Shown here: piece by piece, positions 27,647 through 46,788 of the stretch
How positions within the stretch are numbered: the stretch's first letter is position 1
How the letters are laid out: the number at the start of each line of letters is the position of its first letter
Virus record (IMG/VR): IMGVR_UViG_3300030430_003806
Span: 1 to 52,809 of that record
DNA: 52,809 nucleotides
From: a virus
Taxonomy: Duplodnaviria > Caudoviricetes
Strand: one strand, 5' to 3'
The notes under the pieces: generated by a model
What the model was told of the DNA's origin: nothing
Seen by the model: only the letters and a program-made list of their open reading frames with translations
Database searches by the model: none
Program-made: the position numbers and the translations under genes

Positions 27647-30600
27647 TAGAAAAAGATACATACAATACAGATGCAAAAAAAGCTATTTCAGAATATGACA
27701 ATTCTGAAACAAATAGAATTAATAGTTTATTTGATAATATTGTTGTAGGGGAAATACCTAATCAAGAAGCGTCTAATTATTTTAGAGGTCTTGGTGCATT
27801 GGGTTCTGCACAGGCATCACAACCACAAGAACAACCATTGCAAGAAATGCTTGATCCAAGAGCTGCAATAGGCACAGGTAGACAAAGATTTGTAAGAGGT
27901 TTTAAAGCAGGTTGGGGTGATTTGTTGTATGGATCAGGTGACACATATGACTTTATAAAATCATTTTTAACACCAGGAGAACCACAGCCAGACAGTAAAA
28001 TAGGTAATTATTTAAGAAACATAGGAGAGCAATATCAAAACGATAATGTATTAGCTTTATCAAAAGATTTTGATGATATGTCATTTTCTGATTTATTCAA
28101 AGGTGAATTTTATAGCTCTAAGTTTTCTAGACTATTACCATATGCTTTATCATTTGTAGTGCCATATGGAACAGGATCTATATTAGCAACAAGAGCTATG
28201 GGTAGGTATGGTGTGAAAGTTTTATCAAAGTTTGGTAAAGCTGGAAAATTTGCTACACCTGGTACTGGTTTAGCTGGAAAATTTGTATACGATGCAGGTA
28301 AAAAAGGATTAAAGGCAACAAAACTAGCAAAAAAGACTTCTGGTTTAGTAGGTGGTGGTTTAACAGCAAACTTAGTAGAAGGTGCGTATTTATCTGGAGA
28401 AGCATATAATACTATGATTAACGAAAAAGACGCAAACGGTAATCCATTATTTACACCAAAAGAAGCCTCTAGACAAGCTGTAGGCGTTATGGGTGACAAT
28501 ATGAAATGGGCTGGTCTTGATATTTTACAATATGGTTTGTTATTTGGTGGTCTTGGTAGAACGGCAGGTTTTAACATAGGAGCAGTAATGAAAAATGTAA
28601 GACCGCAAAAAATTAAATTTTCAACTAATATTAGAACACTATCAGCTTCATTAATGAAAAAAATATTACCCAATTTACCTGCTGCAGGATTATATGCAAG
28701 TCTTGAGGGATTAACTGAAGGGTTTCAAGAAGTATATCAAGAATGGGCTAAATATGCAAATATACAAGAAGCAAAAGGATTAGAATATGATGACTGGACA
28801 GACTGGTTAAAAACCGCACCAACTGATCAAGCACCTAAAGAGATCAAAGATATTTTTTGGTCAAGCGTAGGTTTAGGCGGTACATTAGGTGGAGTCAGAG
28901 GATATTTTGATTCTGCTGCAGAAAGAACAAAAGCATTTAATGATAAATCTGATCGTGTAAATAAACAAATAGATTTATGGGAACAAAGTTATGAAGATAG
29001 TGCTGCAGGTCAAAGAATGCAAGATGCAATTTTAGCAGAACAAGTTTGGAACTACTATGGTGATGGAACGTATTCAAAAAATCAAATACAACAACAAGTA
29101 GATAGCGGTAAAATGACACAAGAAAGTGCAGACATTTTATTTGAAGCTATAGATAATTTAGAAACTGCATATGAAAAACATACAATAAATTCAGGCCTTA
29201 CTGAAAGTGGAGCGCAGGCAGCTTTCTTCTATGAAGTTGAATTATCTAGAATAAAACAGGAAAAGAAATCTTTAGAAGAATCAAAAAATGAACAAATAGA
29301 TAAAATTTCTAAGGTTATAAAAAATAAAGAAAATCTACAAGAAAAAGTAGATGCAATAGAAAAAGAATACAATGAATTAGTTGAGAAAAAAAATCAAGAG
29401 GAAGCACAATTAAATCAAGAAATTGAGTTTTTGTATACAAGAAAAAAAGACACAGCGCCTAAAACAAAAGCAGGCGCTAGAGATAAAAGATTTAAACCTG
29501 CAGGACTCACTGACCAAGAGTTTGAAACACTTACACAGGAAGGTGAACAACAAAGACAAGAAAGAGAAGCTCAAGAAAAAAAAGATCAACCATCAAGATT
29601 ACAAAGAGTAACAGAAACAGCTAAGAAAGCTGGGGCAGCTGTTGTGACTGGCGCACAAAATGTTATTCAGGCTGGTAGAGATCGTATTAAATCTATTCAA
29701 GACAAAAGAGCAGAAAATAGAAAAATAAAAGATGCGGTAAATCAGATTGATGAAATGGAAAACATTACATCTAGCGCAAAAACAAAATTAAAAGAAGCAG
29801 TTGAAAATGGTGAAGTTACTGTAGAGGATGCTTTAAATATAAAAGGCACTGGTAGAGACGGCAACATCAACAACAAAGATGTTAATTTACTTAAAAAACG
29901 ACAAGAAAGGAAAGATACACAAGCCGAAGAAACGTCTCCTGAAACTCCAGAAGACGTAAAAAAAAAAGACCAAAATAGAGTAGTTCCTAAATCAAGGGAC
30001 TATCAAGAGGTAGAATCTAAAGGTTCTAGAACTCTTGAAAAATCAAAAATAGAAAAAGGTAGAGGTAAGTCATATTACACTATTGTTAAGGATGGTGAAA
30101 AAATATCTTACGTTGATCAAGAAGGCAGATCAGATGTGTTTGTTTTAGAAGATCAAGATGTAGATATAGAGCTAGAAGTTCGTAGTCCACAAAAAGGTCA
30201 AGAAAATGTAGTTAACATTGACGGTCAATTATTTTTTGAGTTTAATAATAAACTATATGAGTCTGAGATTATTGTAAAAGCGAATGGAGTTGAAATCGGT
30301 AAAGTAGCACAAAGAGATTTTGCAAAAGGATTTAAAAGAAAAGCTAAAAAGACTTCAAACAAATCTGTACTTGATAAAGTAAAACAAAAAATTAAAAAGA
30401 AACAAAAAGATGTCAAGGATTATGTTTCTGCAATAAAAGATACAAGGCAAGATCCAGATGAATATGTAGGACTAAAAGCATATGCGCAAAGCGGTGGTAG
30501 AACATCTTTGTATGAGTATAGCTATATTAAATCTATAGTTGATAAAAAGTTTCCTGGCTTCAAAGGTATTCTTATGGATAATCTTATTGATGACTATGGA

Positions 30601-33600
30601 CAAAAATCAGTAGCGCTTGCATTTGGTAATATAATACTTATAAATAGAGATCAAGTTACGCAAACAACGGCTGTTCACGAGGCTGGACATATATACTATA
30701 CGTTACAAAAGAACACGCCATTAATGAAGCGTATACGTAAACTATTATACAGAAGTAAGATCTATGAAGATATTAGAAGAGAGTATCCAGAACTTATACT
30801 TATTAATTATAAAGGAGATAAAATTACTTTAGGAGAACTGTATGATAGAATCAAAACAGATCAATCTCCTAATGTAGATAATGCCATGGTCAGTTTAGCT
30901 AATGAACTTCAAGAAGCAGAAATAGCAAACGATAATACTAAGATAAATGAATTGTTTAATGGCTTATTGTTATTAGCTAAAGGCGACGGAGCTAAAGAAG
31001 TTAGAAGAGATTTGCAAGACCATGTTATAGAAGAAGCATTTGTTAGAACTTTAGAAAATTATTCAAATGGTACAGCTGATTCTGTAATTGAAGGTACATT
31101 AGCTAGAGAACAATTAGAAAAAGACATTATAGAGTTTTATAAAAAAACTAAAGATATAGCTACTGATGAAGAGGCTAGAGAGTTTTTGAACATAGCGGTA
31201 GCTGACATTGAAAATTTAAATCTTGAAACTGCAATAAAGTATGTATTAACTAATTTTGAAGCTAACAATGGTAAGATACCTAAGATTAGAAATAGTGCAT
31301 ATGGGGCAAGAAAAAGAGCATCTAAAGACAAAACAAGACGTATAAGCGGACATTCAGTAATATATTCACACATTAGTAAGTATATAGGTAAAGCACAATC
31401 AACAGATCAGATTACTGCAAGTGTATTGAAAGACCTACAAAAAAACTACAATTTGAGTGAAGAGCAGGTAGCCGATATAAAAACATACATAGAGGCTACA
31501 GTTGAAAAATCAAATAATAAGATACAGTATAAGCAAGGAAACAAAAGGTTTGAAAAACTTTTAGATGATGTAAGTCAAGAGTCTGAAACTCTTAATGATA
31601 TAGAAGCTAGAGAAGAAAAAGATCTTGCAATGTCTACTACCATGTCAAATGTTATGTCAAATATTGTAAGCATATATAATGGTAGAAATCCAGATAATCC
31701 AATGTCACTTAAAAAATTAATGGCAAAGTTAATAGGATTAGCAAAAGACAATAAATATGATTCATATCTGTTTATAACTGCAGCCAGACAAGAAACAGAT
31801 GAAATAGCAAACATGTTTAGCGTATTGGATCAAGTATATCTTAATCCAAGACTAAGTAACGCAAAGCTGCTAGAAATGAAAATGTTTTTTGATAATGTAC
31901 AAATAGAAAACTTTACAAAAAATGCATTAGTTATAGAAGATAAAGGTGTTAGAAGTTGGAGGCAATTTGATGCAACTAGTAGCACACTTGAAAATAGAGT
32001 TGTTACATCTTTACTTAATAAAATAAAAAAAGATCAAAATAAAATAGGGCCCAAACTAGCAGCAGTATATAACGAGCTGTTTGATAAAGATGCTAATAGT
32101 ATATACAACAGAAGAATAGCTGCAAAAAAATATTTAGATAATTTATTTGAAGATGTTGAAAATGCAGGACTTATAGATAAAGATGCTGTATTAAATAACT
32201 TACTATATTTTGATGGCAGAAGAGATTATTTACACAATATATTATTTGATCATACAATAAATAAGTTTGGTAATCCAGATCTTAAAACCAAAGGTCTTAT
32301 GGCTTTTGCAAACAAAAAATTTGTTTTCAAAACAAAAGCATTTACTCCAGGTATATTCAATAAGCAAATAGAACTAAGACAAATACTTACACAATCTTTA
32401 ATACTGTCTAGAGCATCAAACTATTTATCTATAGTTGATAATGTAGAAAATCAAGGTGTAAGTATTCTTAACAAAGAAAATAGCTTACACAATAAGTCTA
32501 TGCGTATAGCAAATAGAGTAAATAACAATGAAGAGTTTTCTAAAAAAAATATATTACATCCTGACAACAATATATTTACAGCTATACTTGAGCAAAGAAA
32601 AAAGAATGGAGAGCTTGTAAATGACAACAAAGATATAATTACAAACCCACTAGGAATAAGTATAAATTCAGGATTGATGACTTATCTTAAAAGTGGTGTA
32701 GAAGCAGAAAGATATGTTGATAAATCATTAGCATATACAAGAATGTCATCTATAGAACTACTAGCAAGTGATTATTTTCAATTTATTTCTCAGTACAATA
32801 AAAACAAAAACAAAAAATCATTTTTCTATCAGCAACCAATAGCTGTATTTTCAGATAAAAGCAGAAGGTATTACGTTGATGCATTAGCTGCACATAATGA
32901 TACTACTACAAAAATTATATTAGATAAAATTAAAAACAATCCTGCGTATAAAGATACATATACAGATGGATCAAGAGTTTTTCCTTTTGATATAACTAAT
33001 AATCAAATTAGTAATATTAAACAACTTGAAAAAGAATTTAATAATTATATAGAAAAAAACATAGAATTATTTAAGGGTAATAAAGACTTTGTAAAAAATA
33101 ATCCTGCTAATAAATTTTTCTTAACATCATATATTGCCAATAAGTTTATGGCACAACAGTTTTTTATACATGATCATAGACAATCTAAAAATGAAATAGA
33201 TTATATAAAAAGAACTGCTGGTGCAATAGCTAGCGGTACACCATATGATAGAAATGCTCAAGTAGAAATGATTATATACAAAGATACTTTTGATAACGAA
33301 GGCAATATACAAAATGATGCTATGGGGTATATGTTACCAGAACAAATACAAGAGGTTTCAGAAAAGTTTGGTGACATTCAAAAGGTTGGTAGTGTATTGA
33401 AGTTTGTATATTATCATACAGACATAGACACAAACGAAACAGTGTATTTAAAGTTTGCTGTCCATCCTATTACCAAAACCATGGAAGATAACAGTGAAGC
33501 GTTTAAAAAAATAGCTGATGATCTAAGAGCTAGACATACAGAAATATCTGAAGTAGTTATAAAAGATTTTGATGGAGAAAATATTTTTTTACATGGAAAC

Positions 33601-36600
33601 TTAGTTCTAGCAGTATCAGAATCATCTACCAAAGTATTTAAAAAAGGTGTAGAAAATAGTGAGTATGTATATGATATTTTTGAAAATACAGAAACTATAA
33701 ATCAAAAACAAAATGAGCTTTATTTAGGAGATGACTATCAAGCATTATCTGGCGAGGGTTTACGTATTCAGTTGGAGCTAGACAAACAATCTAACGAAAG
33801 ATTTTATCCATCACAATTATTTTATCATTTACATACTAACATTGATAGAGATGGTAAACCATTTATTGATAGCATGACTAATAGTCGTACAGAAGTAATG
33901 AATGAAAATAACGAAAGTCGTAACAGAAATATAATAGAAGTTGGTGATAACAAAAATGTATATAAAGAAAGAGATGAGCTTTTGTCATCCGTTAGCTCTA
34001 ATATATATGGACCGCTTATAGAAAACTTTTTTTCATATGCAGATCCAAGATATCCATATATAAATGGTCCTTACAATGCAGCAGCATTAGGAAGGGTGGC
34101 GCATAAGGGTACAAAGATGTATACAAAAGGTAGTATTGCATATCAGTCATCTGATCTAGGATTAAATTTAGAATCATACAAAAAAGTTTCTGACTATTAT
34201 GATGATAATGGTAATTATACTGGAGAAACCAATACGACATCACAAAAAATATTCAAAAGAAAACTAGACCTATTACTAGAAACAAAACCAAATACTATTG
34301 TTTCTGAAGCGTGGATACCAAGCTATATGAAACAACAGGGTGTAGAGATCGGAGATTTGTTTATTGGTACAAGAATACCTGCTCATGGTAAAGTAAGTAG
34401 TTCTGTTTTTATTATAAAAGAGTTTCACGAGAAGGTTGCTAACACACCTAGTAGTAATATTACAATACCTGCAAAGGTAAGTGCAGCTTGGGGTGCAGAC
34501 TTAGACGGAGATAGTGTGCATATGAATTTTAAATATACAGAAGAAGAGGCTAGAAAAACAAATTGGAAAAGAGCAAGCAATTTATTTTTTGACAACTATG
34601 TGCAATTAGTAAGTAATGATAATAAAACAGGTGAAACACAGGCGGTTATAGATATTAAAGATACAGTAGAAAAAATATTAGGTACAGAAACCCCAACCAC
34701 AGATAGTCAATTATTACCAACTGGTGATGCTTTAGTGTTTGAAAACAATGTTCCAGGAAAAAAATTAGTTGGTATTATAGCAGCATTGCAAAGAACATAT
34801 AATATATTTTCACACAATAATGAACCAACTCCTGTACCTATAACAATAAATGGTAAGCGTGTAACAAACTTTAATGATCAAAACAAAGACGAGTGGTTTG
34901 GTGTAGCGCAGTTATTGAACATTGCATTAGATAATGCTAAGTTTCAATACACAGAAAGATTAGGACTTACTTATCAAAGTGTTTTTTCATTTGTAACACT
35001 TAAAAGATTAGGATTTGATCTTAATGATATTGTTCAGATATACAATAGTGATCTTGTTAAAGAATACATGGAGTTTAAAAAATCTAGAAGTAGAAACTAT
35101 TTATCTAGAAATAGTGATATTGAAAAACTTTTTGATAAAGAATCGGATATTAGCTATAATGAATTAGTTGAGTTTTTAAGAACTAGATACAAGGGTATTG
35201 TACTAGGTAAAAAATATAATGCAGTTGCCTGGAATAAAATAACAGATCGTATAAAAGATGGACTATCTATTAATACCAATCAACTTAATGAGCAAGCACA
35301 ATTAGATGCTGTGCTTTTAATCTATACATTAGAACAATTCAATAAAGATGTTGTTAGGCCGTTTGGTAAAGCATTTACTATTCATCAAAATATAGAAAAA
35401 AATCCTGTTGAGTTAAAATCTGTGTATGAACAGATTGAAAAAATTAGAACAGAGTCAATAGTAATTAATGAAAAAAAACAAGGTGGTCTTAATATAGAAT
35501 ATAAACTTGGTAATAGTGCAAACAATAACATTGTAACACATGCGCAAAGTATATTTCAAAAAGTTTTGAATAGAGCCAGTATAACTGATTTAAGATACAC
35601 ACCATATGTGCAAAGTATTATTGCTACTGAAATTGGACAAAACTATTTAAATGATGAAAAAAGAGCTTCTAATAAAACTGAAATTATAAATCAAGTTATT
35701 ACTAACAATCTTATAAATAAATTACCGCAACTTCAGATTTATGATAGGCAAACTTTAATAGCTGAACTAGAAGATATGAAAACTAGATACATAGGTAATG
35801 GTTTTCTTAATATTTTAGAAATAGTAAAAAATGCAGATGGAGTAGAATTTATTACTCTATCTAGTAAAATTAACGATCTAATCAGTAAAACAGAAATAGA
35901 AAACATACAAAGTGAATTTGCTAAATTAAGTATTGAAGATAAAAATAAAATATTTAGCATGGAGGCGGAGTTCAATAAGTTTGGTTATACAGGCTATCCA
36001 AAAGCCATTTCTTTTGCACCATTTTTTGATGTACAATATATGGAAAGCATTAATGATGATATTGATGCTATGGTTGAATCAGAAAATAAAATTGAAGAGG
36101 ATCAGATTTTAGTTAAGCTAGATGAAGCGGCTAGATTAGTTTCATTTAAAAAAGATAAATATAGTCTAAATGATAGAGTAGACAATGCTAGCAAAAAAAG
36201 CAGAGATATACCAATAACAAGAAAAAAAGCTAAAAAAGCATATGGTTCACGTACATCATTCAACAGAGATGCGCTATCTGGTGAAACAAAAAAATATTCA
36301 TTTAATCAGTGGGTAGCTGATAAGGGTATAGATAAGAAAAAAATATCTAGAGATTCAATGACATTTAAATTATTGAAAGATAGATATGCTACATATGAAC
36401 AAGACTATGATATTGTAAAAGAATTTGAAGGTAGTTTAAAGCGTAAGCCACTTTCAAGATATAGTTTTGCAGATTTAGAAAAAACAATAAGAAAGTTTTA
36501 TAAACTTGATAATGCAGCTAGTCAATTTGTATTATACAAAATGGAGCTACAATTAGGAAAACTTGTTTTTCGTAAACAAGCAGAGTTTTTAAGATCAAAA

Positions 36601-38739
36601 GCAGGTCAACAAAACTTTAAGTACAATATTCCAGGTGAAGATGGTACGCCACAAAGCGATATATCTGGCTTTAGACTATGGTTAGGATCTAATAATATGA
36701 CATCTGATAGACCAGAAATACAAGAGTTAATAAATACAGCAGAAAGAGAATATACTTCATATGTAAATAGATTTAGAGAATATAGAAAAGCAATAAATGG
36801 TGCATATAATAAATTATATAATTCAAAAGTATCAGATCTAACAATAATTGAAAGAGTAAAAAAAGAATTTTTACTACAACAAAAGTATGAATTTATATTT
36901 GGTAATATAATCAAAGTAGATAATGGTAAGATAAGATTACTTAATAGTAAAGAATACAATAGAGCAAAAGCATCACTATCTAAAGAAGAAAGAGATTATT
37001 ATGAAATGTATAGAGATGTAACGGCTAGACTATTTAGAGGTCAGCAAAGAGCTGGTAATGATGCGTTGTTTTCATATGTACATGGAGCAAGTATGAGATC
37101 TTTAGAAGCTATGGATAAGAATGGCATGTTTGGTTTGTATGATATGATTATAGATTCAACTGATTATAATCGTGTAAAAGTAAGGGGTAAGGATCTAGAT
37201 GGTAAAATAAAACTTAAAACATTCTATGAGTGGAAATATGATGTGTACAAAAACAAAAGCACATTCGGTGGATTAAGAGAACTAAATAAACTTAGAGCAA
37301 AAGCTAAAAGATTTAAAAAACAAGGCATCAATGAGGATGGATCAAAAATACTATTGTCAGATGTAGAAATAGATGCACTAATAAACAACGGTCAGCTACT
37401 ACAAAAGATGTTGGATAAAAACATTAAAGGAGCATCTGATATAGATCTTGAAATAATTAAAGAGTATGAAAGACGAAGAGGTGCAGCTTTAGAATTTGCT
37501 ACTATGGATATCAATACAGCTTTACTTGAGTTTGCCAGAGGTAGTTTATTTTCTAATGGCGATTCTGAGTTTGGAGGTATGAAACAAACTAGTATACTTA
37601 CTAATGCTGCTATAGCATATAATAAAAATCTAAACAACGAGAATGCAGTCAAGTATTTGACTGAGTGGTGGAAACAAGGCTTTTTAGGTAAACAACAACA
37701 AACAAGTATATTTGGAGAAACAGGCGACAAGGTGATAGATGGATTTGTAAGTCTTACGTCATTAAGATTATTAGGATTTAATTTATCAGTTGGTGTAGGT
37801 AACTTATTAGCTGGTAAATACCAAGAATTACGTAAGCGTGGTGGTAGACAATTTATTACAGGAGAAGATAGATATTTTAGAAATAGAGGTAAGTCATTAG
37901 AAATACTTAAAAAATATAGGGTTATACAGCATAGCTTTGATGATTTTGTTCATTTATCTGAAGGTAAGGGTTTATGGGGTAAAATAGAAAAAGCATCATT
38001 TATCTTTATGGATAAAACGGAACACTATATACAGGGTGCTGCATTTTTAGGATTTCTTACAAATCAAGAGTTCAACACTGGTGAGATCAGTGAGTTAAGG
38101 GTTAGAGAAATAAATAACAGAATAGCAACATTACATGGTGAGGGTTATACGGCCTTAGACGCATCACTATTATCTATGTATTCATATGGTAGATCTTTAC
38201 TACAATTTAAGAAATGGTGGCTAACATTATTTGCTGATCGTTTTGGATCAGAGCAGATTAATAGATTTGGCGAAGTAACTATTGGAAGTTATACTGCAGC
38301 CACACAATATACAAGAGACATCTTTCAAAAATATTTTAGAGGTGAGATTACTATGGTAGACTTTTTTGAAGAGTATAAAAAACTATCACCTGCACGTCAA
38401 GAAGAAATAAAAAGTTTTATGCGGGGTATTGGTATTACTGTAGCAATACTATCTATGATAGCTATATTGGAAGACGATGATGATCCAGATACAGAGGTTA
38501 TCAAAGCTCTTAAAAAACTAGAAAATGATATATATGCAGCTACAGATATAGATAGATTTATTGGGTATACTATTATACCTGCATCTATTGCTACTGGTGA
38601 AACAGCAGTTGATTTTATAGGTGAAGTTGCGTTAGACAAAAAAGATAGACTAGGTAGAAGTAAAGCTTTACGTACACTAAAAACAGAATTGATTCCTGGT
38701 TCTAGTTTAGTTGAAGGAATAGAAAACCTTATAGATTAA
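27643..38739 (+). CDS. Virion-packaged two-barrel RNA polymerase polyprotein with a zincin-like domain
   Basis: 3698 aa; RIPAHG...GADLDGD catalytic loop (34492-34512), DYIKR, NDAMGY, KFVY and YLKF motifs; VHEAGH plus a downstream EE (about 30670-31040); hydrophobic segments at both termini. Confidence 0.9.
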   Translation: MIEKDTYNTDAKKAISEYDNSETNRINSLFDNIVVGEIPNQEASNYFRGLGALGSAQASQPQEQPLQEMLDPRAAIGTGRQRFVRGFKAGWGDLLYGSGDTYDFIKSFLTPGEPQPDSKIGNYLRNIGEQYQNDNVLALSKDFDDMSFSDLFKGEFYSSKFSRLLPYALSFVVPYGTGSILATRAMGRYGVKVLSKFGKAGKFATPGTGLAGKFVYDAGKKGLKATKLAKKTSGLVGGGLTANLVEGAYLSGEAYNTMINEKDANGNPLFTPKEASRQAVGVMGDNMKWAGLDILQYGLLFGGLGRTAGFNIGAVMKNVRPQKIKFSTNIRTLSASLMKKILPNLPAAGLYASLEGLTEGFQEVYQEWAKYANIQEAKGLEYDDWTDWLKTAPTDQAPKEIKDIFWSSVGLGGTLGGVRGYFDSAAERTKAFNDKSDRVNKQIDLWEQSYEDSAAGQRMQDAILAEQVWNYYGDGTYSKNQIQQQVDSGKMTQESADILFEAIDNLETAYEKHTINSGLTESGAQAAFFYEVELSRIKQEKKSLEESKNEQIDKISKVIKNKENLQEKVDAIEKEYNELVEKKNQEEAQLNQEIEFLYTRKKDTAPKTKAGARDKRFKPAGLTDQEFETLTQEGEQQRQEREAQEKKDQPSRLQRVTETAKKAGAAVVTGAQNVIQAGRDRIKSIQDKRAENRKIKDAVNQIDEMENITSSAKTKLKEAVENGEVTVEDALNIKGTGRDGNINNKDVNLLKKRQERKDTQAEETSPETPEDVKKKDQNRVVPKSRDYQEVESKGSRTLEKSKIEKGRGKSYYTIVKDGEKISYVDQEGRSDVFVLEDQDVDIELEVRSPQKGQENVVNIDGQLFFEFNNKLYESEIIVKANGVEIGKVAQRDFAKGFKRKAKKTSNKSVLDKVKQKIKKKQKDVKDYVSAIKDTRQDPDEYVGLKAYAQSGGRTSLYEYSYIKSIVDKKFPGFKGILMDNLIDDYGQKSVALAFGNIILINRDQVTQTTAVHEAGHIYYTLQKNTPLMKRIRKLLYRSKIYEDIRREYPELILINYKGDKITLGELYDRIKTDQSPNVDNAMVSLANELQEAEIANDNTKINELFNGLLLLAKGDGAKEVRRDLQDHVIEEAFVRTLENYSNGTADSVIEGTLAREQLEKDIIEFYKKTKDIATDEEAREFLNIAVADIENLNLETAIKYVLTNFEANNGKIPKIRNSAYGARKRASKDKTRRISGHSVIYSHISKYIGKAQSTDQITASVLKDLQKNYNLSEEQVADIKTYIEATVEKSNNKIQYKQGNKRFEKLLDDVSQESETLNDIEAREEKDLAMSTTMSNVMSNIVSIYNGRNPDNPMSLKKLMAKLIGLAKDNKYDSYLFITAARQETDEIANMFSVLDQVYLNPRLSNAKLLEMKMFFDNVQIENFTKNALVIEDKGVRSWRQFDATSSTLENRVVTSLLNKIKKDQNKIGPKLAAVYNELFDKDANSIYNRRIAAKKYLDNLFEDVENAGLIDKDAVLNNLLYFDGRRDYLHNILFDHTINKFGNPDLKTKGLMAFANKKFVFKTKAFTPGIFNKQIELRQILTQSLILSRASNYLSIVDNVENQGVSILNKENSLHNKSMRIANRVNNNEEFSKKNILHPDNNIFTAILEQRKKNGELVNDNKDIITNPLGISINSGLMTYLKSGVEAERYVDKSLAYTRMSSIELLASDYFQFISQYNKNKNKKSFFYQQPIAVFSDKSRRYYVDALAAHNDTTTKIILDKIKNNPAYKDTYTDGSRVFPFDITNNQISNIKQLEKEFNNYIEKNIELFKGNKDFVKNNPANKFFLTSYIANKFMAQQFFIHDHRQSKNEIDYIKRTAGAIASGTPYDRNAQVEMIIYKDTFDNEGNIQNDAMGYMLPEQIQEVSEKFGDIQKVGSVLKFVYYHTDIDTNETVYLKFAVHPITKTMEDNSEAFKKIADDLRARHTEISEVVIKDFDGENIFLHGNLVLAVSESSTKVFKKGVENSEYVYDIFENTETINQKQNELYLGDDYQALSGEGLRIQLELDKQSNERFYPSQLFYHLHTNIDRDGKPFIDSMTNSRTEVMNENNESRNRNIIEVGDNKNVYKERDELLSSVSSNIYGPLIENFFSYADPRYPYINGPYNAAALGRVAHKGTKMYTKGSIAYQSSDLGLNLESYKKVSDYYDDNGNYTGETNTTSQKIFKRKLDLLLETKPNTIVSEAWIPSYMKQQGVEIGDLFIGTRIPAHGKVSSSVFIIKEFHEKVANTPSSNITIPAKVSAAWGADLDGDSVHMNFKYTEEEARKTNWKRASNLFFDNYVQLVSNDNKTGETQAVIDIKDTVEKILGTETPTTDSQLLPTGDALVFENNVPGKKLVGIIAALQRTYNIFSHNNEPTPVPITINGKRVTNFNDQNKDEWFGVAQLLNIALDNAKFQYTERLGLTYQSVFSFVTLKRLGFDLNDIVQIYNSDLVKEYMEFKKSRSRNYLSRNSDIEKLFDKESDISYNELVEFLRTRYKGIVLGKKYNAVAWNKITDRIKDGLSINTNQLNEQAQLDAVLLIYTLEQFNKDVVRPFGKAFTIHQNIEKNPVELKSVYEQIEKIRTESIVINEKKQGGLNIEYKLGNSANNNIVTHAQSIFQKVLNRASITDLRYTPYVQSIIATEIGQNYLNDEKRASNKTEIINQVITNNLINKLPQLQIYDRQTLIAELEDMKTRYIGNGFLNILEIVKNADGVEFITLSSKINDLISKTEIENIQSEFAKLSIEDKNKIFSMEAEFNKFGYTGYPKAISFAPFFDVQYMESINDDIDAMVESENKIEEDQILVKLDEAARLVSFKKDKYSLNDRVDNASKKSRDIPITRKKAKKAYGSRTSFNRDALSGETKKYSFNQWVADKGIDKKKISRDSMTFKLLKDRYATYEQDYDIVKEFEGSLKRKPLSRYSFADLEKTIRKFYKLDNAASQFVLYKMELQLGKLVFRKQAEFLRSKAGQQNFKYNIPGEDGTPQSDISGFRLWLGSNNMTSDRPEIQELINTAEREYTSYVNRFREYRKAINGAYNKLYNSKVSDLTIIERVKKEFLLQQKYEFIFGNIIKVDNGKIRLLNSKEYNRAKASLSKEERDYYEMYRDVTARLFRGQQRAGNDALFSYVHGASMRSLEAMDKNGMFGLYDMIIDSTDYNRVKVRGKDLDGKIKLKTFYEWKYDVYKNKSTFGGLRELNKLRAKAKRFKKQGINEDGSKILLSDVEIDALINNGQLLQKMLDKNIKGASDIDLEIIKEYERRRGAALEFATMDINTALLEFARGSLFSNGDSEFGGMKQTSILTNAAIAYNKNLNNENAVKYLTEWWKQGFLGKQQQTSIFGETGDKVIDGFVSLTSLRLLGFNLSVGVGNLLAGKYQELRKRGGRQFITGEDRYFRNRGKSLEILKKYRVIQHSFDDFVHLSEGKGLWGKIEKASFIFMDKTEHYIQGAAFLGFLTNQEFNTGEISELRVREINNRIATLHGEGYTALDASLLSMYSYGRSLLQFKKWWLTLFADRFGSEQINRFGEVTIGSYTAATQYTRDIFQKYFRGEITMVDFFEEYKKLSPARQEEIKSFMRGIGITVAILSMIAILEDDDDPDTEVIKALKKLENDIYAATDIDRFIGYTIIPASIATGETAVDFIGEVALDKKDRLGRSKALRTLKTELIPGSSLVEGIENLID

Positions 38740-38751
38740 CAATATAAGAAG

Positions 38752-38767
38752 AAATTTATTAACTTTG
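38752..38767 (+). promoter_or_regulatory. Late promoter motif AAATTTAT-TAACTTTG
   Basis: TAnnTTTG at 38760-38767, upstream of ATG 38780. Confidence 0.65.
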
Positions 38768-40325: not shown

Positions 40326-40583
40326 ATGTATAATAATAAAACATATGTAATATTAGATGCATCTGATTTAGAAAAAGTAGATTCAAATGGTGATCCATTA
40401 TTTGATTTTTCTGATGTTTTAAACATTTCTAAATATTATTTAAGGTATAATTTAGCTGGAGATAAAGCTTTAGTTAAATACGAAGGTGATACACCTGAAT
40501 CATTAAAAGATAAAGTAAAATATACACATGAAGAAATATTAACTATTGTTAGTGGATCAGATTGGTTAAGCAACGATGAATAA
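40326..40583 (+). CDS. Small acidic protein associated with the LamG gene
   Basis: 85 aa; DFSDV...LRY...KALVKYEGDTP...YTHEEIL. Confidence 0.65.
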   Translation: MYNNKTYVILDASDLEKVDSNGDPLFDFSDVLNISKYYLRYNLAGDKALVKYEGDTPESLKDKVKYTHEEILTIVSGSDWLSNDE

Positions 40584-41604
40584 ACTTATATTTATATTAT
40601 TGATAATTAGCTTTTCTACTGAAGCTCAGATAAATAAATATTTAAAATTTTCTACATTCTATGTAGCTGCAAATGGAGGGACATCAATATCTGATGTTGA
40701 TGTATATTCAATTCAAGACGGGCTACAAACATCTACAATACAGACACCATATGACTATAATTTATCACTAGGAGTAAGAAAGATAGCAAGGTTTGGTTAT
40801 GAAAATAGAGCTCAAACTTTTTATGATGGCACAGAAACATCATGGTCTGATGCAGCTACACTTGGCAAGGTTAGTGGTCTAGAGTTTTTATTTGAGTTCA
40901 ATAAAAAAAGACAAGAAGGTGATGATTATCTAGATCAACACTATTTTATAAGATATGTTGACAATGATTGGCTAACAAAAGTAGAGTATCTACAAGACGG
41001 ATTTGCAGATATACAATACTATGAAGCATCACAAAGATATAGATATAAATACAACAAACACTTATCATTTAATATTGGTGCTGTTCAACGTATAGCAGAA
41101 CCCTATGGTTATGATCCGCTTTCTGAATGGTTACTTGATAACGGAGATATACATTACACATATTTAGCAATACAAGAGGGATACACAATAGATGTTCATA
41201 ATAGCGAGTATAAAGATCCAAATGGAAATATAGTGGCAACATCATCAGATGTTTGGAAAGAAATAATAATACCTGGAGTATTAAGAGATTATGTTGAAAG
41301 AAAAAGAGATGAATTACCTGCACAATGGAATCACTCTTTAGTTGTTGGATATGATTATTATTATTATACAAAAATGTTTTGGTTACATTCTTGGGCTAAC
41401 CTATTACCATGGCACTATGATGCGGGTAATGAATATAGCTATCATAAATATAATAATGGTCAGTGGTTAGATTATTCTGGTGGAGTAATATTTGGTTATA
41501 AGTATAGTAAACAATTAGGATTATTTGCTGAAGGTAAGTATAATAAATACTGGAATAGGGAATGGTATGATTTTAAATTAGGTGTTAATTATATATTATT
41601 ATGA
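40576..41604 (+). CDS. Exported, aromatic-rich, beta-barrel-like outer-membrane protein
   Basis: Signal peptide ending TEA-Q; alternating hydrophobic strands; C-terminal YDFKLGVNYILL resembles a BAM beta-signal. Confidence 0.7.
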   Translation: MNKLIFILLIISFSTEAQINKYLKFSTFYVAANGGTSISDVDVYSIQDGLQTSTIQTPYDYNLSLGVRKIARFGYENRAQTFYDGTETSWSDAATLGKVSGLEFLFEFNKKRQEGDDYLDQHYFIRYVDNDWLTKVEYLQDGFADIQYYEASQRYRYKYNKHLSFNIGAVQRIAEPYGYDPLSEWLLDNGDIHYTYLAIQEGYTIDVHNSEYKDPNGNIVATSSDVWKEIIIPGVLRDYVERKRDELPAQWNHSLVVGYDYYYYTKMFWLHSWANLLPWHYDAGNEYSYHKYNNGQWLDYSGGVIFGYKYSKQLGLFAEGKYNKYWNREWYDFKLGVNYILL

Positions 41605-41771
41605 AAGTAAATTGGATAAATGGCTACAAGGCCAATAATAAAAAAGAAGTATACAGAATAGAATTTAGACTTGGTACAATGACATTATTTTATGTTCATT
41701 ACTGTGCTTGTGTCGGTGGAACGTGTTCAAGATTTAGATTAATGTTGTTTAACTTTGGAATAGAATTATAA
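41601..41771 (+). CDS. 56-aa Cys-containing microprotein (absent from the ORF track)
   Basis: Hand translation MKVNWINGYKANNKKEVYRIEFRLGTMTLFYVHYCACVGGTCSRFRLMLFNFGIEL; ATGA overlap upstream and TAATG overlap downstream. Confidence 0.7.
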   Translation: MKVNWINGYKANNKKEVYRIEFRLGTMTLFYVHYCACVGGTCSRFRLMLFNFGIEL

Positions 41772-42052
41772 TGTCAAAAGAACTAAATGAAGATACTAGT
41801 TTTAAAGTAAGTGTAAAAACTTTAATAGCAATAGGGGCTGGTCTATCAGCTTTAATAGGCATGTGGTTTACGTTACAGGCAGATATAGCTGAAGCTAAAG
41901 AACTACCTGTATCTACACCAGAAGTTACTCGCATGGAGTTTGATATGAAAGATCAAATGATTAGACAATCAATAATCAACACTGAGGCTAATGTTAAAAA
42001 ACTTGAAGAAAGAATGATAAGAATGGAGGATAAAATAGATAAGCTGAGATGA
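41771..42052 (+). CDS. Single-pass membrane protein with a C-terminal coiled coil
   Basis: LIAIGAGLSALIGMWFTL TM segment; VKKLEERMIRMEDKIDKL heptads. Confidence 0.75.
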   Translation: MSKELNEDTSFKVSVKTLIAIGAGLSALIGMWFTLQADIAEAKELPVSTPEVTRMEFDMKDQMIRQSIINTEANVKKLEERMIRMEDKIDKLR

Positions 42053-42387
42053 AAAAATGTTTGAAATTTTTATTTGTATTATTTTTATTTACGGTATATA
42101 CAGAATGTTGTTTTTCACAGATCACAGCGATTTACTTTAATGCATCTTGGAATGCTGCGAATGAAGTTGTTTGGTTTGATAAATTAAATGATGTAGAAAA
42201 AGAAACTATGGATATTGGTAAAGGTGATTGTCAACAGAAATATAAAATAGCAGTAGTTCCTACGATCTTACTTATGAAGGACGGAGAGGAAGTTAAAAGA
42301 TTTCAGGCTGATTTAAGCTTTAAATTAATGGCTACTAAAAAAGAAATACAGAATATAATTGATGAACTATTAATGGAAGATTTCTAA
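42049..42387 (+). CDS. Exported thioredoxin-fold protein lacking CxxC
   Basis: Signal peptide ending CFS-Q; YFNASWN in place of FxAxWC; KYKIAVVPTILLMKDGEEVKRF matches the thioredoxin cis-Pro region. Confidence 0.75.
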   Translation: MKKCLKFLFVLFLFTVYTECCFSQITAIYFNASWNAANEVVWFDKLNDVEKETMDIGKGDCQQKYKIAVVPTILLMKDGEEVKRFQADLSFKLMATKKEIQNIIDELLMEDF

Positions 42388-44720
42388 TGAAAAAATTTAT
42401 ATTTATATTATTGATATTACAAGCTTGCGTTGCACCAAAAGAATGTTGTGGTCAAAATACGTGGGTTAACTTCAGAGTAATGTTTGATTTTTATGGACCA
42501 CAAGAGTCTAATTTCTTTATGGTATCAAACACCAATGGCGATACTGCAATGTATCATCAACCAACAACACCTTATGAATATATAGATACAATAATATTTT
42601 TAACTTCAGGACAATATACAGTTACACTAAACGATTCTTATGGTGATGGGTGGGTATCAAACCAACCTTCTTGGTTTGAAATGCGTAATCCATGTCAAGG
42701 TCAGATAATAAATTGGAATCCATTAGTTGATCCATTTTTTATCAGAGATACTGTCGTAAATATTTTACCTTGTCCCCCACCTAATCCACCTGCTCCACCA
42801 GTATGTGAGCTTACAATAATTAATATAAACCTAGATCAGTTTCCAGAAGAAACATCTTGGGATATTGTAGATAGTTTAGGCAATACAATTATATCAGGAG
42901 GTACATATCCCAACGCACCAAACTATCAACCACAATTTATTCTTAACTGTTTACCAGTGGGTGAACTTACATTTACTATTTATGACACATATGGCGATGG
43001 CCTTCAAGGATCTCTTTGGGGTGGGCAAGACGGATCGTATTATGTAATACAATGCGAAGACACCCTTGTATACGGAACAGTAGCTAACTTTGGTAGTGAT
43101 ACAAGTCATGTATTTATAAGCGATACATGTATACCACCACCACCTGTATATGGGTGTACAGATGATGATTATGTAGAATACAATCCTCTTGCAACAATAG
43201 AAGACAGTAGCTGTGTTACTTTAAAAATATATGGATGTACAGACAGCACTATGTTTAACTATGATAGTTTAGCTAATACAATAGAAAATATAGATCGTTG
43301 TACATATGATCTAATATTACATGATTTAGTAGGGAATGGTTGGGTTGGAACAAGACTTGAAATTTATCAAGAAGATGATACATCATTATTTTTTATGACA
43401 AATGGTTTTAATCAATACTTTACTATTGATTTATATGCTGTAGAAGAAGTAAGTGCAAAACTATTTGTAAGTCAACAAGCGCAAAACACTGCTCTTGAAT
43501 GTGGTTTTACACTAATTAATCCATACGGGGATACTGCATTAAGCATTAGACCACCTTTTGTTGTTCCATTTAAACTATACGAAGGCGAAACATATTGCGG
43601 TAATACATGTGAAGAAAAAATTTATGGGTGTATAGATTCTCTTGCATTTAACTATGTGGATACAGCAAACGTAGGAACAGCATGTTACTATTATCCAGGA
43701 TGTATATCGCCTGCCTATCTTGAATATCATGTAGATACAACAAATGGATATTTTACGGACATAAATATACAAGATAGCTGTATAACATTAGCTGTATTTG
43801 GATGTATGGACGACACTATGTCAAACTATAATATATTAGCTAATGTAGATAATGGCGGATGTATACCTTATGTATATGGGTGTATGGATCCTTTGATGTT
43901 TAATTATAACGCTTTAGCTACAGCGCCAGATACATGTATACCATATCTTTATGGGTGTACAGATCCAACTATGTACAACTATGATCCGTTTGCAAATACA
44001 GATAATGGATCATGCGAGCCCTATGTATATGGTTGCACAGATAGTACAATGTTTAATTATAATCCCTTAGCCAATGCTGACAATAATACTTGCGTGCCTT
44101 ATATCTATGGTTGCACTGATCCTAGCATGCTCAACTACAACCCACAAGCGAATACAGAAGATTTCAGTTGCATACCTTACATTTACGGTTGTACTGATAG
44201 TACTGCCTTTAATTATGATTCAACAGCTAATACTGATAATGGTTCGTGTGAAGCTGTTGTACAAGGATGTATGGACCAATCAGCATATAACTATGACGTT
44301 ACGGCTAATGTTAGTGACAGTGCTAACTGCCTTTTTGATGCTGGTTGCATCACTGGTCCTGGTTCCCCTTATTGGTTGAACGATCCTTGTTATGCTTGGG
44401 TAATAGATGTAGATGAATATTGTTGTGAAAATGAATGGGACACTATTTGTCAAAGCACATATAATTATTGTTATAATAATTGGAGTGGTCCGATACTAAC
44501 TAGACAAATAGCAGATCTTGATATATATCCTAATCCAACAAAAGGTAAAATATATTTTAGTAAATTTGTAAATGTTGTATTATACAACATATCAGGACAA
44601 GAGCTCAAAAGAAAAAAGAAAGTACAGGAGTTAGATTTATCTAACATGGAAGAAGGACTATATTTAATTGAATTAGAATACAATGAAAATGTATTCATAA
44701 ACAAAATTATTAAACGTTGA
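42387..44720 (+). CDS. Secreted Cys-repeat protein with a type IX secretion (T9SS) C-terminal sorting domain
   Basis: Signal peptide; three DxYGDG-like domains; 11 GC(T/M/I)D-type repeats; C-terminal IYPNPT...LYNISGQ...LDLSN...GLYLI...KIIK. Confidence 0.85.
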   Translation: MKKFIFILLILQACVAPKECCGQNTWVNFRVMFDFYGPQESNFFMVSNTNGDTAMYHQPTTPYEYIDTIIFLTSGQYTVTLNDSYGDGWVSNQPSWFEMRNPCQGQIINWNPLVDPFFIRDTVVNILPCPPPNPPAPPVCELTIININLDQFPEETSWDIVDSLGNTIISGGTYPNAPNYQPQFILNCLPVGELTFTIYDTYGDGLQGSLWGGQDGSYYVIQCEDTLVYGTVANFGSDTSHVFISDTCIPPPPVYGCTDDDYVEYNPLATIEDSSCVTLKIYGCTDSTMFNYDSLANTIENIDRCTYDLILHDLVGNGWVGTRLEIYQEDDTSLFFMTNGFNQYFTIDLYAVEEVSAKLFVSQQAQNTALECGFTLINPYGDTALSIRPPFVVPFKLYEGETYCGNTCEEKIYGCIDSLAFNYVDTANVGTACYYYPGCISPAYLEYHVDTTNGYFTDINIQDSCITLAVFGCMDDTMSNYNILANVDNGGCIPYVYGCMDPLMFNYNALATAPDTCIPYLYGCTDPTMYNYDPFANTDNGSCEPYVYGCTDSTMFNYNPLANADNNTCVPYIYGCTDPSMLNYNPQANTEDFSCIPYIYGCTDSTAFNYDSTANTDNGSCEAVVQGCMDQSAYNYDVTANVSDSANCLFDAGCITGPGSPYWLNDPCYAWVIDVDEYCCENEWDTICQSTYNYCYNNWSGPILTRQIADLDIYPNPTKGKIYFSKFVNVVLYNISGQELKRKKKVQELDLSNMEEGLYLIELEYNENVFINKIIKR
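43148..44330 (+). repeat. Intragenic array of about 25-aa YGCTDxxxxNYxxxANxDxxxC repeats
   Basis: 11 copies counted in the translation, seven of them back to back; boundaries approximate. Confidence 0.85.
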
Positions 44721-44938
44721 GTTTTCTAAACATCTTTAAAGACAATAATAATTATAATGAAAAAACTATAATTGGGTTTATAGCTTTTTTAATAATGTGT
44801 GTAATTATGATTGCTGACTTACTTACAGGTTGGTTTGGTAAAGATCTTATCATTAACGAGTTTGTATATGATTCATTTACTTTGATCGTATTAGGGTGTT
44901 TCGGAATAGCTGGACTAGAAAAATTTGCAAAAAAATAA
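44717..44938 (+). CDS. Two-TM membrane protein, holin-like
   Basis: 73 aa with two hydrophobic helices and a basic C-terminus; TTG start overlaps the upstream stop. Confidence 0.55.
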   Translation: MSFLNIFKDNNNYNEKTIIGFIAFLIMCVIMIADLLTGWFGKDLIINEFVYDSFTLIVLGCFGIAGLEKFAKK

Positions 44939-45266: not shown

Positions 45267-45524
45267 ATGGCTGTAAGAAAAACAAAAGCTGGACTAAGAT
45301 TAAAGCGTTGGTTTAAGGAAGACTGGAGAACACCTTCAGGTGAAAAAGATTATAGTAAAGGAGAAAATACATTTAGACCTACTAAACGTATAAGTAAAGA
45401 TACACCAAAGACTTGGAGTGAGTTAAGTCCTGGAGAAAAAAGAGCAGCTGCAAGAGAGAAAAAGAAAAAAGGTAGAGTTAGTAGATATAAAGGTGGAGGT
45501 AAATTTTTAAGACAACTAGATTAA
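45267..45524 (+). CDS. Basic protein, DUF5872-like (LKRWFKEDW)
   Basis: LKRWFKEDW...FRPTKRISKDTPKTWSEL; ends LRQLD. Confidence 0.7.
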   Translation: MAVRKTKAGLRLKRWFKEDWRTPSGEKDYSKGENTFRPTKRISKDTPKTWSELSPGEKRAAAREKKKKGRVSRYKGGGKFLRQLD

Positions 45525-45534
45525 ATTTAATATT

Positions 45535-45849
45535 ATGAAACATAAAATGAAAAAAAAGAAAATGTATAAAAAAGGCGGTATGCTTAAACCAGTTGATAAA
45601 AAAAAGAATCCTGGTTTAGCAAAACTTCCTAAAGATGTTAGAAATAACATGGGCTTTATGATGTATGGAGGTAAGGTTAAGAAAGCTCCAGGCGGCATGA
45701 TGATGAAAAAAAGAATGATGAACTATGCTGGTGGTGGTAAAATGCTTAACGGAATGTCTATGCAAAAAGCCGCTAAAGGAATGAAAATGGACTATGGTCA
45801 TGGTGGTATGATGAATAAGCCAGGACAAGGTTTGAAACAGCTTGACTAA
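45535..45849 (+). CDS. Met/Lys/Gly-rich basic protein with repeated xxxGG motifs
   Basis: YKKGG, MMYGG, APGG, YAGGG and YGHGG; NPGLAKLPKDVRNNMGF core; ends LKQLD. Confidence 0.75.
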   Translation: MKHKMKKKKMYKKGGMLKPVDKKKNPGLAKLPKDVRNNMGFMMYGGKVKKAPGGMMMKKRMMNYAGGGKMLNGMSMQKAAKGMKMDYGHGGMMNKPGQGLKQLD

Positions 45850-46196
45850 TGCCAGAGAACCCTATTAGACGTACAATAGGTAAGGGTGGCAACTATCGTA
45901 AAACAAAGTCTGGAGCTGGCATGACTCGTAAGGGTGTTGCTGCATATAGGAGAGCAAACCCTGGTAGCAAGCTGAAGACTGCAGTAACAGGTAAGGTTAA
46001 GCCTGGTAGTAAAGCTGCTAAACGTAGAAAGTCGTATTGCGCTAGAAGTTTAGGGCAACTAAAACGTAGTAGTGCTAAAACTAGAAATAATCCAAACTCA
46101 AGAATAAGACAAGCAAGACGTAGGTGGAAATGTGAACATGGTTGTGCAATGCCTGCAAGATCAGGATCTAGAGCTATGTATAGACAATTAGACTAA
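45849..46196 (+). CDS. Basic protein, DUF6321-like
   Basis: GMTRKGVAAYRRANPGSKLKTAVT...RRKSYCARS...RRRWKC; ends YRQLD. Confidence 0.75.
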   Translation: MPENPIRRTIGKGGNYRKTKSGAGMTRKGVAAYRRANPGSKLKTAVTGKVKPGSKAAKRRKSYCARSLGQLKRSSAKTRNNPNSRIRQARRRWKCEHGCAMPARSGSRAMYRQLD

Positions 46197-46396
46197 TGGC
46201 AGTATTAACAACAATAAATAATATACCAGTCTTTAGTACAGTACAAGAAGCTTTGAACTGGGCAGCATCTAATAATTTATCTGGATATCATACACATATG
46301 GTGAATGGCCAGATAGGATATATGGGTGGACCAACACATGGACAGGCTGCAGGATCGTCACAAGGATTAAGAGGTAGTAATCAATCTAGTTACTAA
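46196..46396 (+). CDS. His-motif microprotein
   Basis: GYHTH...GYM...H, a possible metal-binding module; TAATG overlaps on both sides. Confidence 0.65.
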   Translation: MAVLTTINNIPVFSTVQEALNWAASNNLSGYHTHMVNGQIGYMGGPTHGQAAGSSQGLRGSNQSSY

Positions 46397-46788
46397 TGAG
46401 TTTATTAGGTAAAATTTTTAGTTCAGGTGCTAGTGATTTGGTAAAAAATGTAGGTGGTGTAATAGATAATTTACACACATCTAAAGAAGAAAAATTAGAA
46501 GCACAGCGTAAACTTCAAGAGTTAGTTGCTAACTATGAGGTTGAAATGGAAAAAAATGTAACTGACAGATGGAAGTCAGATATGAATAGTGACTCTTGGT
46601 TAAGTAAAAATGTAAGACCATTAGTTTTAATATTTTTAGTAGTAAGTACAGTGCTTATGATATTTATAGATGCAGGAAGTATAAGTTTTTCTGTTGAAGA
46701 AAAATGGACTGATTTATTACAAATAACTTTAATTACAGTAATTGGTGCATATTTTGGTGGCAGATCATTGGAAAAGCGTAAGAGATGA
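46396..46788 (+). CDS. Holin, GTA 3TM holin-like family
   Basis: IDNLHTSKEEK...RWKSDMNSDSWLSKNVRP, two TM helices and YFGGRSLEK. Confidence 0.75.
   Translation: MSLLGKIFSSGASDLVKNVGGVIDNLHTSKEEKLEAQRKLQELVANYEVEMEKNVTDRWKSDMNSDSWLSKNVRPLVLIFLVVSTVLMIFIDAGSISFSVEEKWTDLLQITLITVIGAYFGGRSLEKRKR

Follow-up and report, generated by a model that had tools for sequence, protein, structure and literature searches.

The stretch of DNA analysed here, a window of 52,809 nucleotides from a crAss-like phage, encodes a secreted, cysteine-rich protein of 777 residues, named D777 (42387..44720, plus strand, as are all features below unless stated), which ends in a type IX secretion system (T9SS) sorting domain of type A. 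D777 is probably a phage-encoded cargo of the host T9SS, exported through Sec, disulfide-bonded, and displayed on or released from the infected Flavobacteriales cell together with envelope proteins of the phage itself. Its domains and its tag, the phage origin of its gene, the conservation of a gene cassette around it, and the swapping of tags and heads among its homologues were observed directly.

The C-terminal sorting domain

The D777 gene runs from an ATG start to a stop at 44718-44720 and is the sole long open frame there. Residues 713-777 (44523..44717) form the C-terminal domain (CTD), which was recognised by two curated models, PF18962 at 37.6 bits (cut-off 27, E 2.7e-9, residues 713-775) and TIGR04183 at 37.1 bits (cut-off 23, E 2.3e-9, residues 713-777 of 777). 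A first-pass annotation, made from the sequence alone, had read this domain as a T9SS tag and named both models as its check, and both curated cut-offs were passed. A six-frame search of the whole window returned a single CTD match, at 44523-44717, with E 1.9e-12. In 15 phage CTDs including that of D777, P18-N19-P20, G40, G60-x-Y62 and K79 are invariant; these positions cover the Gly of motif B, the GxY of motif D and the basic residue of motif E, as the motifs are named in PMC11969387 (cited, like all papers below, from extracts).

The AlphaFold2 model placed strands at residues 713-716, 721-733, 739-750, 757-765 and 768-776, with a predicted local distance difference test score (pLDDT) of ~71-84. 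Foldseek against the PDB matched the domain to the NucA CTD, 8glk_D, from a F. johnsoniae T9SS substrate complex (target template modelling (TM) score 0.73, root-mean-square deviation (rmsd) 2.6, 75 columns, 21% identity). VIA-align found FspA-CTD 8glj_D (Z 8.4, rmsd 2.1, 68 aligned, 32% identity), followed by NucA 8glk_D (Z 8.3), RgpB CTD 5ag9_B (7.7), RemZ 8gl8_D (7.6), mirolase CTD 8qb1_A (7.4), PorZ (7.3) and RemA (7.2). T9SS CTDs made up 7 of the 11 best VIA rows, and two DUF3244 sandwiches scored Z 9.1 and 8.5. By hidden Markov model (HMM), motifs and predicted fold, D777 carries a genuine type A T9SS CTD.

Architecture of D777

The signal peptide, residues 1-23 (42387..42455), was read from the sequence as MKKFIFILLIL QACVAPKECCG before Q24, and allows either a signal peptidase I (SPI) site before the Q or a lipobox-like LQAC. 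D777 was modelled by AlphaFold2 from a 49-sequence alignment with a mean pLDDT of 76.2 and a predicted TM score (pTM) of 0.33. The mature protein begins with beta-sandwich head 1 (residues 24-126, 42456..42764, DSYGDG at 83, block pLDDT 75-88) and beta-sandwich domain 2 (residues 140-245, 42804..43121, DTYGDG at 200, pLDDT 85-94). GCxD repeats 1-2 (residues 254-303, 43146..43295), identified by regular expression and Cys spacing, lead to beta-sandwich domain 3 (residues 304-401, 43296..43589, DLVGNG at 313), in which the block pLDDT is mostly 86-93, with one block at 72. The motif D-x-[YV]-G-[DN]-G, searched as D-x-x-G-[DN]-G, is found once per modelled beta-sandwich, three times in D777. Repeats 3-11 follow (residues 412-654, 43620..44348, pLDDT 48-78) and probably form a disulfide-stapled stalk. 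Between stalk and CTD lies a Cys-rich helical module (residues 655-705, 44349..44501, CCENEWDTIC at 679-688), with helices predicted at 667-675, 678-681 and 686-696 at pLDDT ~60-66.

Strict GC[TIM]D units (n=10) were located at residues 256, 283, 414, 472, 498, 523, 549, 575, 601 and 627, and one degenerate unit, GCIS, at residue 438, which gives 11 repeats of ~26 residues with two Cys each. D777 contains 40 Cys in all (5.1%), regularly paired. Across the 49 sequences the Cys, Gly and Asn columns of the repeats are invariant or nearly so, and the helical module has 12 invariant columns in 43 sequences. The first-pass annotation had listed the signal peptide, three DxYGDG-like domains, 11 GCxD repeats, a CC..WD..C module and the CTD; translation, regular expressions and HMM searches reproduced its coordinates and counts, and the pattern is not one that arose by chance.

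Similarity of the remaining domains to known proteins is slight. The domain 2 profile weakly matched the immunoglobulin (Ig)-like repeats of the Lap adhesin 6xi3 (E 1.1e-4). Domain 3 gave weak VIA matches to a Ca-dependent carbohydrate-binding module, 2xhh (Z 6.8), and to a PLAT domain, 3o8y (Z 6.2), and its profile had no match among PDB sequences. With the whole of D777, Foldseek returned beyond the CTD only generic multi-sandwich proteins (ferlins, laminin, neuropilin) at a query TM score of ~0.08. In the ESM Atlas, residues 139-250 reached a best score of 0.80, under the level that counts as a lead. The helical module gave weak matches only in Pfam (DUF5672 in 27 of 43 members, best E 0.0029), and none in five bacterial genomes rich in the short tail described below, an empty answer that shows little. 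No PHROGs family was found for D777, nor for its neighbours A342 and C112.

No enzyme or catalytic family was found in D777 with Pfam, NCBIfam or PHROGs, in keeping with the earlier suggestion of a non-enzymatic protein. The adhesin-like character also suggested then is borne out by the layout, which combines beta-sandwich heads that vary, a stalk made of repeats and an anchor conserved at the C-terminus; this fits an adhesin- or fibre-like build, as judged from sequence and model.

Homologues and head exchange

D777 homologues form 3542 clusters at E<=1e-3 (clusters at 90% identity), many of which come from contigs 50-87 kb long; among the 120 clusters listed, no functional name is given. A scan of viral contigs with D777 gave 67 loci, and a scan of prokaryotes with one genome per species gave 3 partial repeat matches, at query residues 214-676, which lie in a Bacteroidetes MED-G21 metagenome-assembled genome (MAG) and a Cryomorphaceae MAG. 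In a cultured-phage collection there was no DNA match for the D777 gene and no match for A342 or B93, and the D777 protein matched there by its repeats only, to one uncultured marine virus record.

All complete homologues begin with a signal peptide, mostly with Q directly after the hydrophobic core; they are 611-1117 residues long and differ in repeat number. A lipobox-like stretch, [ST/QA]-C-[AV]-[AT]-P-K-x-C-C-[GSA]-Q (window 42426-42455), is common to many D777 and A342 homologues and separates the hydrophobic core from the mature protein; in some D777 homologues it takes the form S/A-C-A-A-P-K-x-C-C-G/S-Q. Other homologues have a plain signal ending in Q. The stretch is also found on the barrel of the same cassette (e.g. 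the A342 homologue at L011:5658-6737). Judged from sequence, it may be a lipidation signal or a long c-region.

D777 and its nearest relative, at locus L005, are 90-98% identical outside head 1, and in head 1 only 31 of 101 residues are shared. The head 1 of D777 is ~65% identical in homologues that are more distant elsewhere. Such divergence of head 1 between otherwise near-identical phages indicates that the distal head is exchanged by recombination. A distal head and a stalk length that both vary, joined to an anchor end that is conserved, are features that fit a binding fibre.

Alternation of a long domain and a short tail

The C-termini of the homologues were classified after exclusion of 10 of the 69 D777-type rows (3 bacterial loci, 4 with an open reading frame (ORF) called through stops, 2 cut by the locus end and one different 3017-residue protein). 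The 59 viral homologues thus classified end in a long CTD in 17 cases and in a tail of ~38 residues in 42 (~70%), with the consensus KxLxxVTDxLGRPxKxxKNKLLxFIYSDGTVEKKxIK. TIGR04183 was found in 14 of 50 related viral records, with one match each. In one record (G049, that of locus L070), the lone TIGR04183 match lies at 4430-4624 on the minus strand, in a 963-residue frame outside the locus with D777-like repeats, so that another CTD-tagged phage protein exists there. Five short-tailed proteins matched no NCBIfam family at E<=10. An hhalign comparison of short tail and long CTD gave a probability of 64% (E 6.5e-5) with two internal deletions, and part of this score comes from the upstream flank that both share.

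The short tail was also found in bacteria. Two marine Bacteroidota MAGs in which the D777 repeats also occur gave 19 and 28 matches to a tail-only profile at E<=0.1; the same two MAGs have 36 and 44 long-CTD matches, and spot checks put the short tails at other places. Both encode SprA (TIGR04189, 1303 and 600 bits). The tail formed the extreme end of the ORF in 6 checked bacterial loci, with a signal peptide in 4 of 4 complete ORFs, the other two being open at the 5' end. When 81 genomes were sampled evenly from the order of these MAGs, the tail was detected at E<=1e-3 in 27, in as many as 52 copies per genome. All 27 are 1.0-2.3 Mb in size, and no sampled genome of >=2.4 Mb has the tail. By analogy, the bacterial ~38-residue tail (..VTDxLGR..LLFYIYxDGxVEKK..) of these small-genome Flavobacteriales is probably a short T9SS signal.

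A precedent exists in Prevotella intermedia, in which short three-strand CTDs of 40-55 residues are proven T9SS signals that support cleavage and glycosylation, and which is called in the extract the only species observed with short CTDs (PMC11969387). As in the marine tail, the Gly-containing motif B and the last two strands are kept, and short CTDs occur beside long ones in the same genome. The marine tail differs in that it has no clear GxY and is tied to the long CTD by the 64% hhalign match only, and D777 itself has a long CTD. Two interchangeable host-type tags in one phage family are what would be expected if the C-terminus were an address and not a structural part, and from the sequences an address is its most likely role.

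The envelope cassette around D777

D777 lies among genes for predicted envelope proteins. A342 (40576..41604) has a signal peptide and is predicted to form a 14-strand outer-membrane beta-barrel (AlphaFold2 pLDDT 76, pTM 0.71). The model has an inserted helical region, and the homologues end in an outer-membrane-protein-type beta-signal, REWYDFKFGVNYVIF or similar. Its fold matches are generic (EstA Z 13.3, Tsx 12.6, NanC 12.5, KdgM 12.3, FadL 7.0). Neither Pfam nor NCBIfam gave a family at E<=10, the PorV and PorP/SprF models included, and PorV and PorP/SprF are not among the listed Foldseek or VIA matches, although such absence proves nothing. The A342 family has 3785 clusters, and among the 120 listed none is named and none has a Pfam family.

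B93 (41771..42052), as judged from the sequences of 56 homologues, consists of an N-terminal transmembrane helix, a Pro-rich linker and a C-terminal coiled coil, and matches phrog_12220, a family of unknown function (E 6.5e-5). C112 (42049..42387) has a signal peptide and a predicted thioredoxin-like fold without CxxC (FNASWNAAN); its matches to TIGR01068 (E 1.7e-4) and PF00085 (E 3.9e-3) are weak, and both are under cut-off. In all 57 C112 homologues the CxxC position reads W-N-x-x-N. These homologues have 106-127 residues and mostly an SPI-type signal (AFGQ, AFSQ), without a lipobox. Stop and start overlap between B93 and C112 and between C112 and D777. Downstream, the start of E73 (44717..44938) overlaps the stop of D777; this protein of 73 residues, taken from the ORF list, has two hydrophobic helices and a holin-like build, and from its sequence may be a holin or antiholin. 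In several loci, L043 and L053 among them, E73 lies directly upstream of a holin homologue.

The conservation of this arrangement was examined in 70 D777-picked loci (67 viral, 3 bacterial), in which every protein of the window was searched by tblastn. A342 was found in 57, B93 in 56 and C112 in 57 of them, and the flanking genes were rarer: the giant ORF in 8, the LamG protein in 6, the holin in 20 and the DUF5675 protein in 16. Two barrel-picked sets remove the bias of picking by D777, namely the best 80 of at least 566 viral matches, and 79 loci picked with a divergent barrel. D777 was present within 10 kb of the barrel in 67 of the 80 loci of the first set, and the other 13 end on the side where D777 is expected. 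It was also present in 72 of the 79 loci of the second set; in 6 of the 7 misses the barrel lies <700 bases from the locus start, and one ends 243 bases past the barrel. The gene orders A-B-C-D, B-C-D-A and D-A-B-C are cyclic permutations, and the cassette was in cyclic order in 139 of 159 barrel-picked loci, the remaining 20 being cut where the cargo gene is expected. E73 adjoins the cassette in 49 of the 79 loci of the second set. A crAss capsid was found in only 13 of 50 cassette-bearing viral records (7 of 21 when only those >=90% complete are counted), which implies that the cassette moves between phage lineages.

Contact between barrel and cargo was modelled with A342 residues 20-342 and D777 residues 655-777, with alignments built for this analysis, in three runs and three controls. 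The complex scored 0.62, 0.58 and 0.00 (median 0.58), and the best control 0.00. Of 157 solved complexes, 116 reach the mark used, as do 2 of 215 mismatched pairs; 18 of the 157 solved complexes and both passing mismatches do so at scores <=0.60. Agreement of contacts between runs is at least 0%, and the partner pLDDT is at least 66. The prediction is a hint only that A342 might bind the C-terminal part of D777.

Genome context

The window is phage DNA and D777 does not lie in a bacterial flank. The record is a linear viral contig, 79% complete by CheckV. PHROGs searches identified the large terminase (3942-5762), portal (5759-8017), major head protein (9162-10703) and holin (46396-46788), and Pfam searches the Crassvirus capsid, tail ring proteins 1 and 2, an SLT lysin domain and the muzzle protein (16265-21961, E 2.8e-120). 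The plus strand carries nearly every long ORF of the window, and D777 is on the same strand and contig as the structural genes and the holin. The assignment of the gene to a phage in the first-pass annotation is thus confirmed by terminase, portal, capsid, ring and muzzle.

The stretch 40576-44720 was present, whole or in part, in 20 runs from 11 studies of marine, seawater or estuary metagenomes dated 2014-2025, and at least half of its sampled words were present in 4 runs only. No RNA run carrying it was listed among 23 runs.

No tRNA was found in a scan of the window. Sigma-70 promoter-like sites were not above shuffles (46 vs 49.4 +/- 5.5), and terminator-like sites numbered 4 vs 2.8 +/- 1.8 in shuffles, none of them at the ends of the cassette genes. 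A promoter-like octamer, TAACTTTG (41750-41757), lies 14 nucleotides before the B93 start in the 166-nucleotide gap after A342, and recurs identically at 38760-38767; both copies are 12-14 nucleotides upstream of starts (38780, 41771). The octamer resembles the Bacteroidota -7-type promoter. The promoter-like motif TANNTTTG was slightly and weakly enriched in the window (103 matches vs 82.8 +/- 9.5 in shuffles).

Two further observations concern other genes of the window. The ORF of 3698 residues at 27643-38739 is without a PHROG or Pfam match, and has homologues in 8 of the 70 D777-picked loci; crAss-like phages usually carry giant virion proteins at this place. Consecutive small, very basic proteins at 45267-45524 (DUF5872), 45535-45849 and 45849-46196 (DUF6321) have a common C-terminal tetrapeptide, [RK]-Q-L-D, which could be a processing or packaging signal.

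Proposed mechanism and alternatives

An extracytoplasmic fate of D777 is indicated by the signal peptides of its homologues and by its 40 paired Cys. We infer a route in which the Sec signal peptide would carry D777 into the periplasm, where its 40 cysteines would form disulfides, possibly helped by the CxxC-less C112. The type A CTD of 65 residues would then pass the folded protein to the SprA/PorV translocon of the host, and the infected Flavobacteriales cell would come to display D777 at its surface or to shed it. At the surface D777 would work with the outer-membrane barrel A342, the inner-membrane coiled-coil protein B93, the periplasmic C112 and often the E73 protein with its two transmembrane helices. 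The purpose ranked first would be surface remodelling, whether to exclude other phages, to protect progeny from debris or to adhere; a role linked to lysis would come second. In a bolder version, which we regard as rather unlikely, A342, B93, C112, D777 and E73 would build a phage-made organelle on the surface of the infected cell: D777 would leave by the host T9SS through its long or short host-type tag, the invariant Cys-helix module would dock on the barrel A342, which B93 and C112 would anchor to the inner membrane and periplasm, and the exchangeable heads would bind a variable target outside, whether rival phages, progeny-trapping debris or fresh host cells.

Several findings weigh against T9SS export as part of an envelope cassette. 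The canonical CTD is absent from most homologues, and the short tail has only a weak match to the long CTD and is detected by no curated model. T9SS was shown only in MAGs of candidate host lineages, and the signal peptide of D777 was assigned by eye from the sequence. The A342 barrel has no specific likeness to PorV or PorP/SprF, and the prediction of its complex with D777 is weak, one of three runs scoring 0.00. Finally, 20 of the 70 D777-picked loci and 22 of the 80 barrel-picked loci of the first set have a holin homologue within 10 kb, which fits a role in lysis at least as well as one in surface display.

Two-component spanins of the Rz/Rz1 type pair an i-spanin, built of a transmembrane helix and a periplasmic coiled coil, with an o-spanin, an outer-membrane lipoprotein. 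By comparison, the whole cassette, D777 included, could serve at the lysis stage to open or detach the outer membrane and so stand in for spanins in Bacteroidota; B93 would be its inner-membrane arm, A342 its outer-membrane arm and D777 a surface accessory. B93 indeed has the build of an i-spanin, the cassette is often near holin genes, which sometimes abut A342 or D777 (L141, L032, L106), the holin-like E73 is frequently adjacent, and unrelated phages typically swap lysis cassettes much as this one is exchanged. The outer-membrane lipoprotein partner, however, is missing: C112 mostly has an SPI-type signal followed by Q, and a barrel, a thioredoxin fold and a very large secreted protein are present instead. 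Furthermore, no known lysis mechanism needs a protein of 611-1117 residues with exchangeable heads and a host export tag, and a holin homologue is near in only 5 of the 79 loci of the second barrel-picked set, so that a lysis device is judged unlikely. The first-pass annotation had also raised the possibility that D777 jams the T9SS or gliding machinery, and this part of it is unsupported, as nothing found bears on it. Saturation or blocking of that apparatus, by which receptors of competing phages would be removed, could be achieved by a large disulfide-rich cargo with an authentic CTD, and mutations in gliding-motility genes have been associated with phage resistance in Flavobacterium psychrophilum (PMC9804748). 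On the other side, exchangeable distal heads and a variable stalk suggest binding outside the cell rather than a plug, and the barrel and other cassette genes would be unnecessary; blocking is very unlikely.

It is highly improbable that D777 is a part of the virion, a tail fibre or decoration whose apparent CTD is merely a structural Ig-like sandwich. The gene does lie in the late region, downstream of a LamG-like protein and on the strand of the structural genes, virions commonly carry Ig-like sandwiches, and a phage lambda tail tip, 8iyk_J, is among the weaker fold matches (Z 6.7). Yet every complete homologue has a Sec signal peptide, virions assemble in the cytoplasm, where 40 paired Cys would stay unoxidised, another host-type tail can take the place of the tag, and the neighbours are membrane and periplasmic proteins in a cassette found in phages with and without a crAss capsid. 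We give equally little credit to D777 being a recently captured host surface-protein gene, carried as a passenger without a role specific to the phage. Its repeats and both tail types are host-like, the 3 bacterial loci share the repeats, and bacterial proteins share the short tail. Against this stand the 3542 homologue clusters and the 67 viral loci with their conserved synteny, and the bacterial matches cover only partial repeats (3 loci, query residues 214-676); the Cys-helix module gave no match in the 5 bacterial genomes searched, a blank that shows little.

Relation to known systems

Phage-encoded T9SS cargo is already published, and what is new here is the cassette membership and the tag alternation of the D777 family. 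'Cryophage' encodes type A T9SS cargo, for which a change of the surface or superinfection exclusion was proposed (Bellas et al. 2020, PMC7468147). As in the D777 family, these are phage genes of Bacteroidota hosts with a type A sorting domain, and they vary between Cryophage variants. In the extract, the Cryophage cargos are an endoglucanase, a GH39 protein and a PA14 protein of a glacier phage, whereas D777 is a Cys-repeat fibre free of enzyme families, found in marine phages within an envelope cassette of 4-5 genes and subject to alternation of long and short tails. Among gut crAss-like phages, one cluster was also reported to have proteins with T9SS sorting domains (de Jonge et al. 2019, PMC6949934). 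According to the extract, the ORFs lie upstream of the head genes and are either BACON-repeat ORFs or neighbours of these; they are noted in passing and, unlike D777, are without barrel, coiled-coil or thioredoxin partners and without Cys repeats.

PorV recognises every type A CTD according to Paillat et al. (2025, PMC12618676), who also state that PorP/SprF-like shuttles are frequently linked to type B cargo. The D777 cargo gene is similarly linked to a dedicated outer-membrane barrel gene, but its tag is type A, and A342 has generic fold matches and no match to the PorP/SprF or PorV models. A literature search, with subscription journals outside its coverage, found no description of the Cys-repeat family or of the cassette.

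Biological significance

Phage T9SS cargo was previously reported only in passing, and it is represented here by a large and abundant family in marine, seawater and estuary metagenomes, bound to a conserved group of phage envelope genes that passes between marine phage lineages unrelated to each other. If D777 is exported as proposed, phages of this type would remodel the surface of some of the commonest heterotrophs of the ocean during infection, and such remodelling, if true, would bear on superinfection, aggregation and particle attachment. The short tail points to small-genome Flavobacteriales as the likely host group, and the alternation of the long CTD with a tail of ~38 residues constitutes a natural experiment on the minimal T9SS signal. 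Should the cassette build a surface organelle, the phage would hijack a secretion system of its host to display its own binding fibre, and the short tail would be a T9SS signal widely used by streamlined marine Flavobacteriales.

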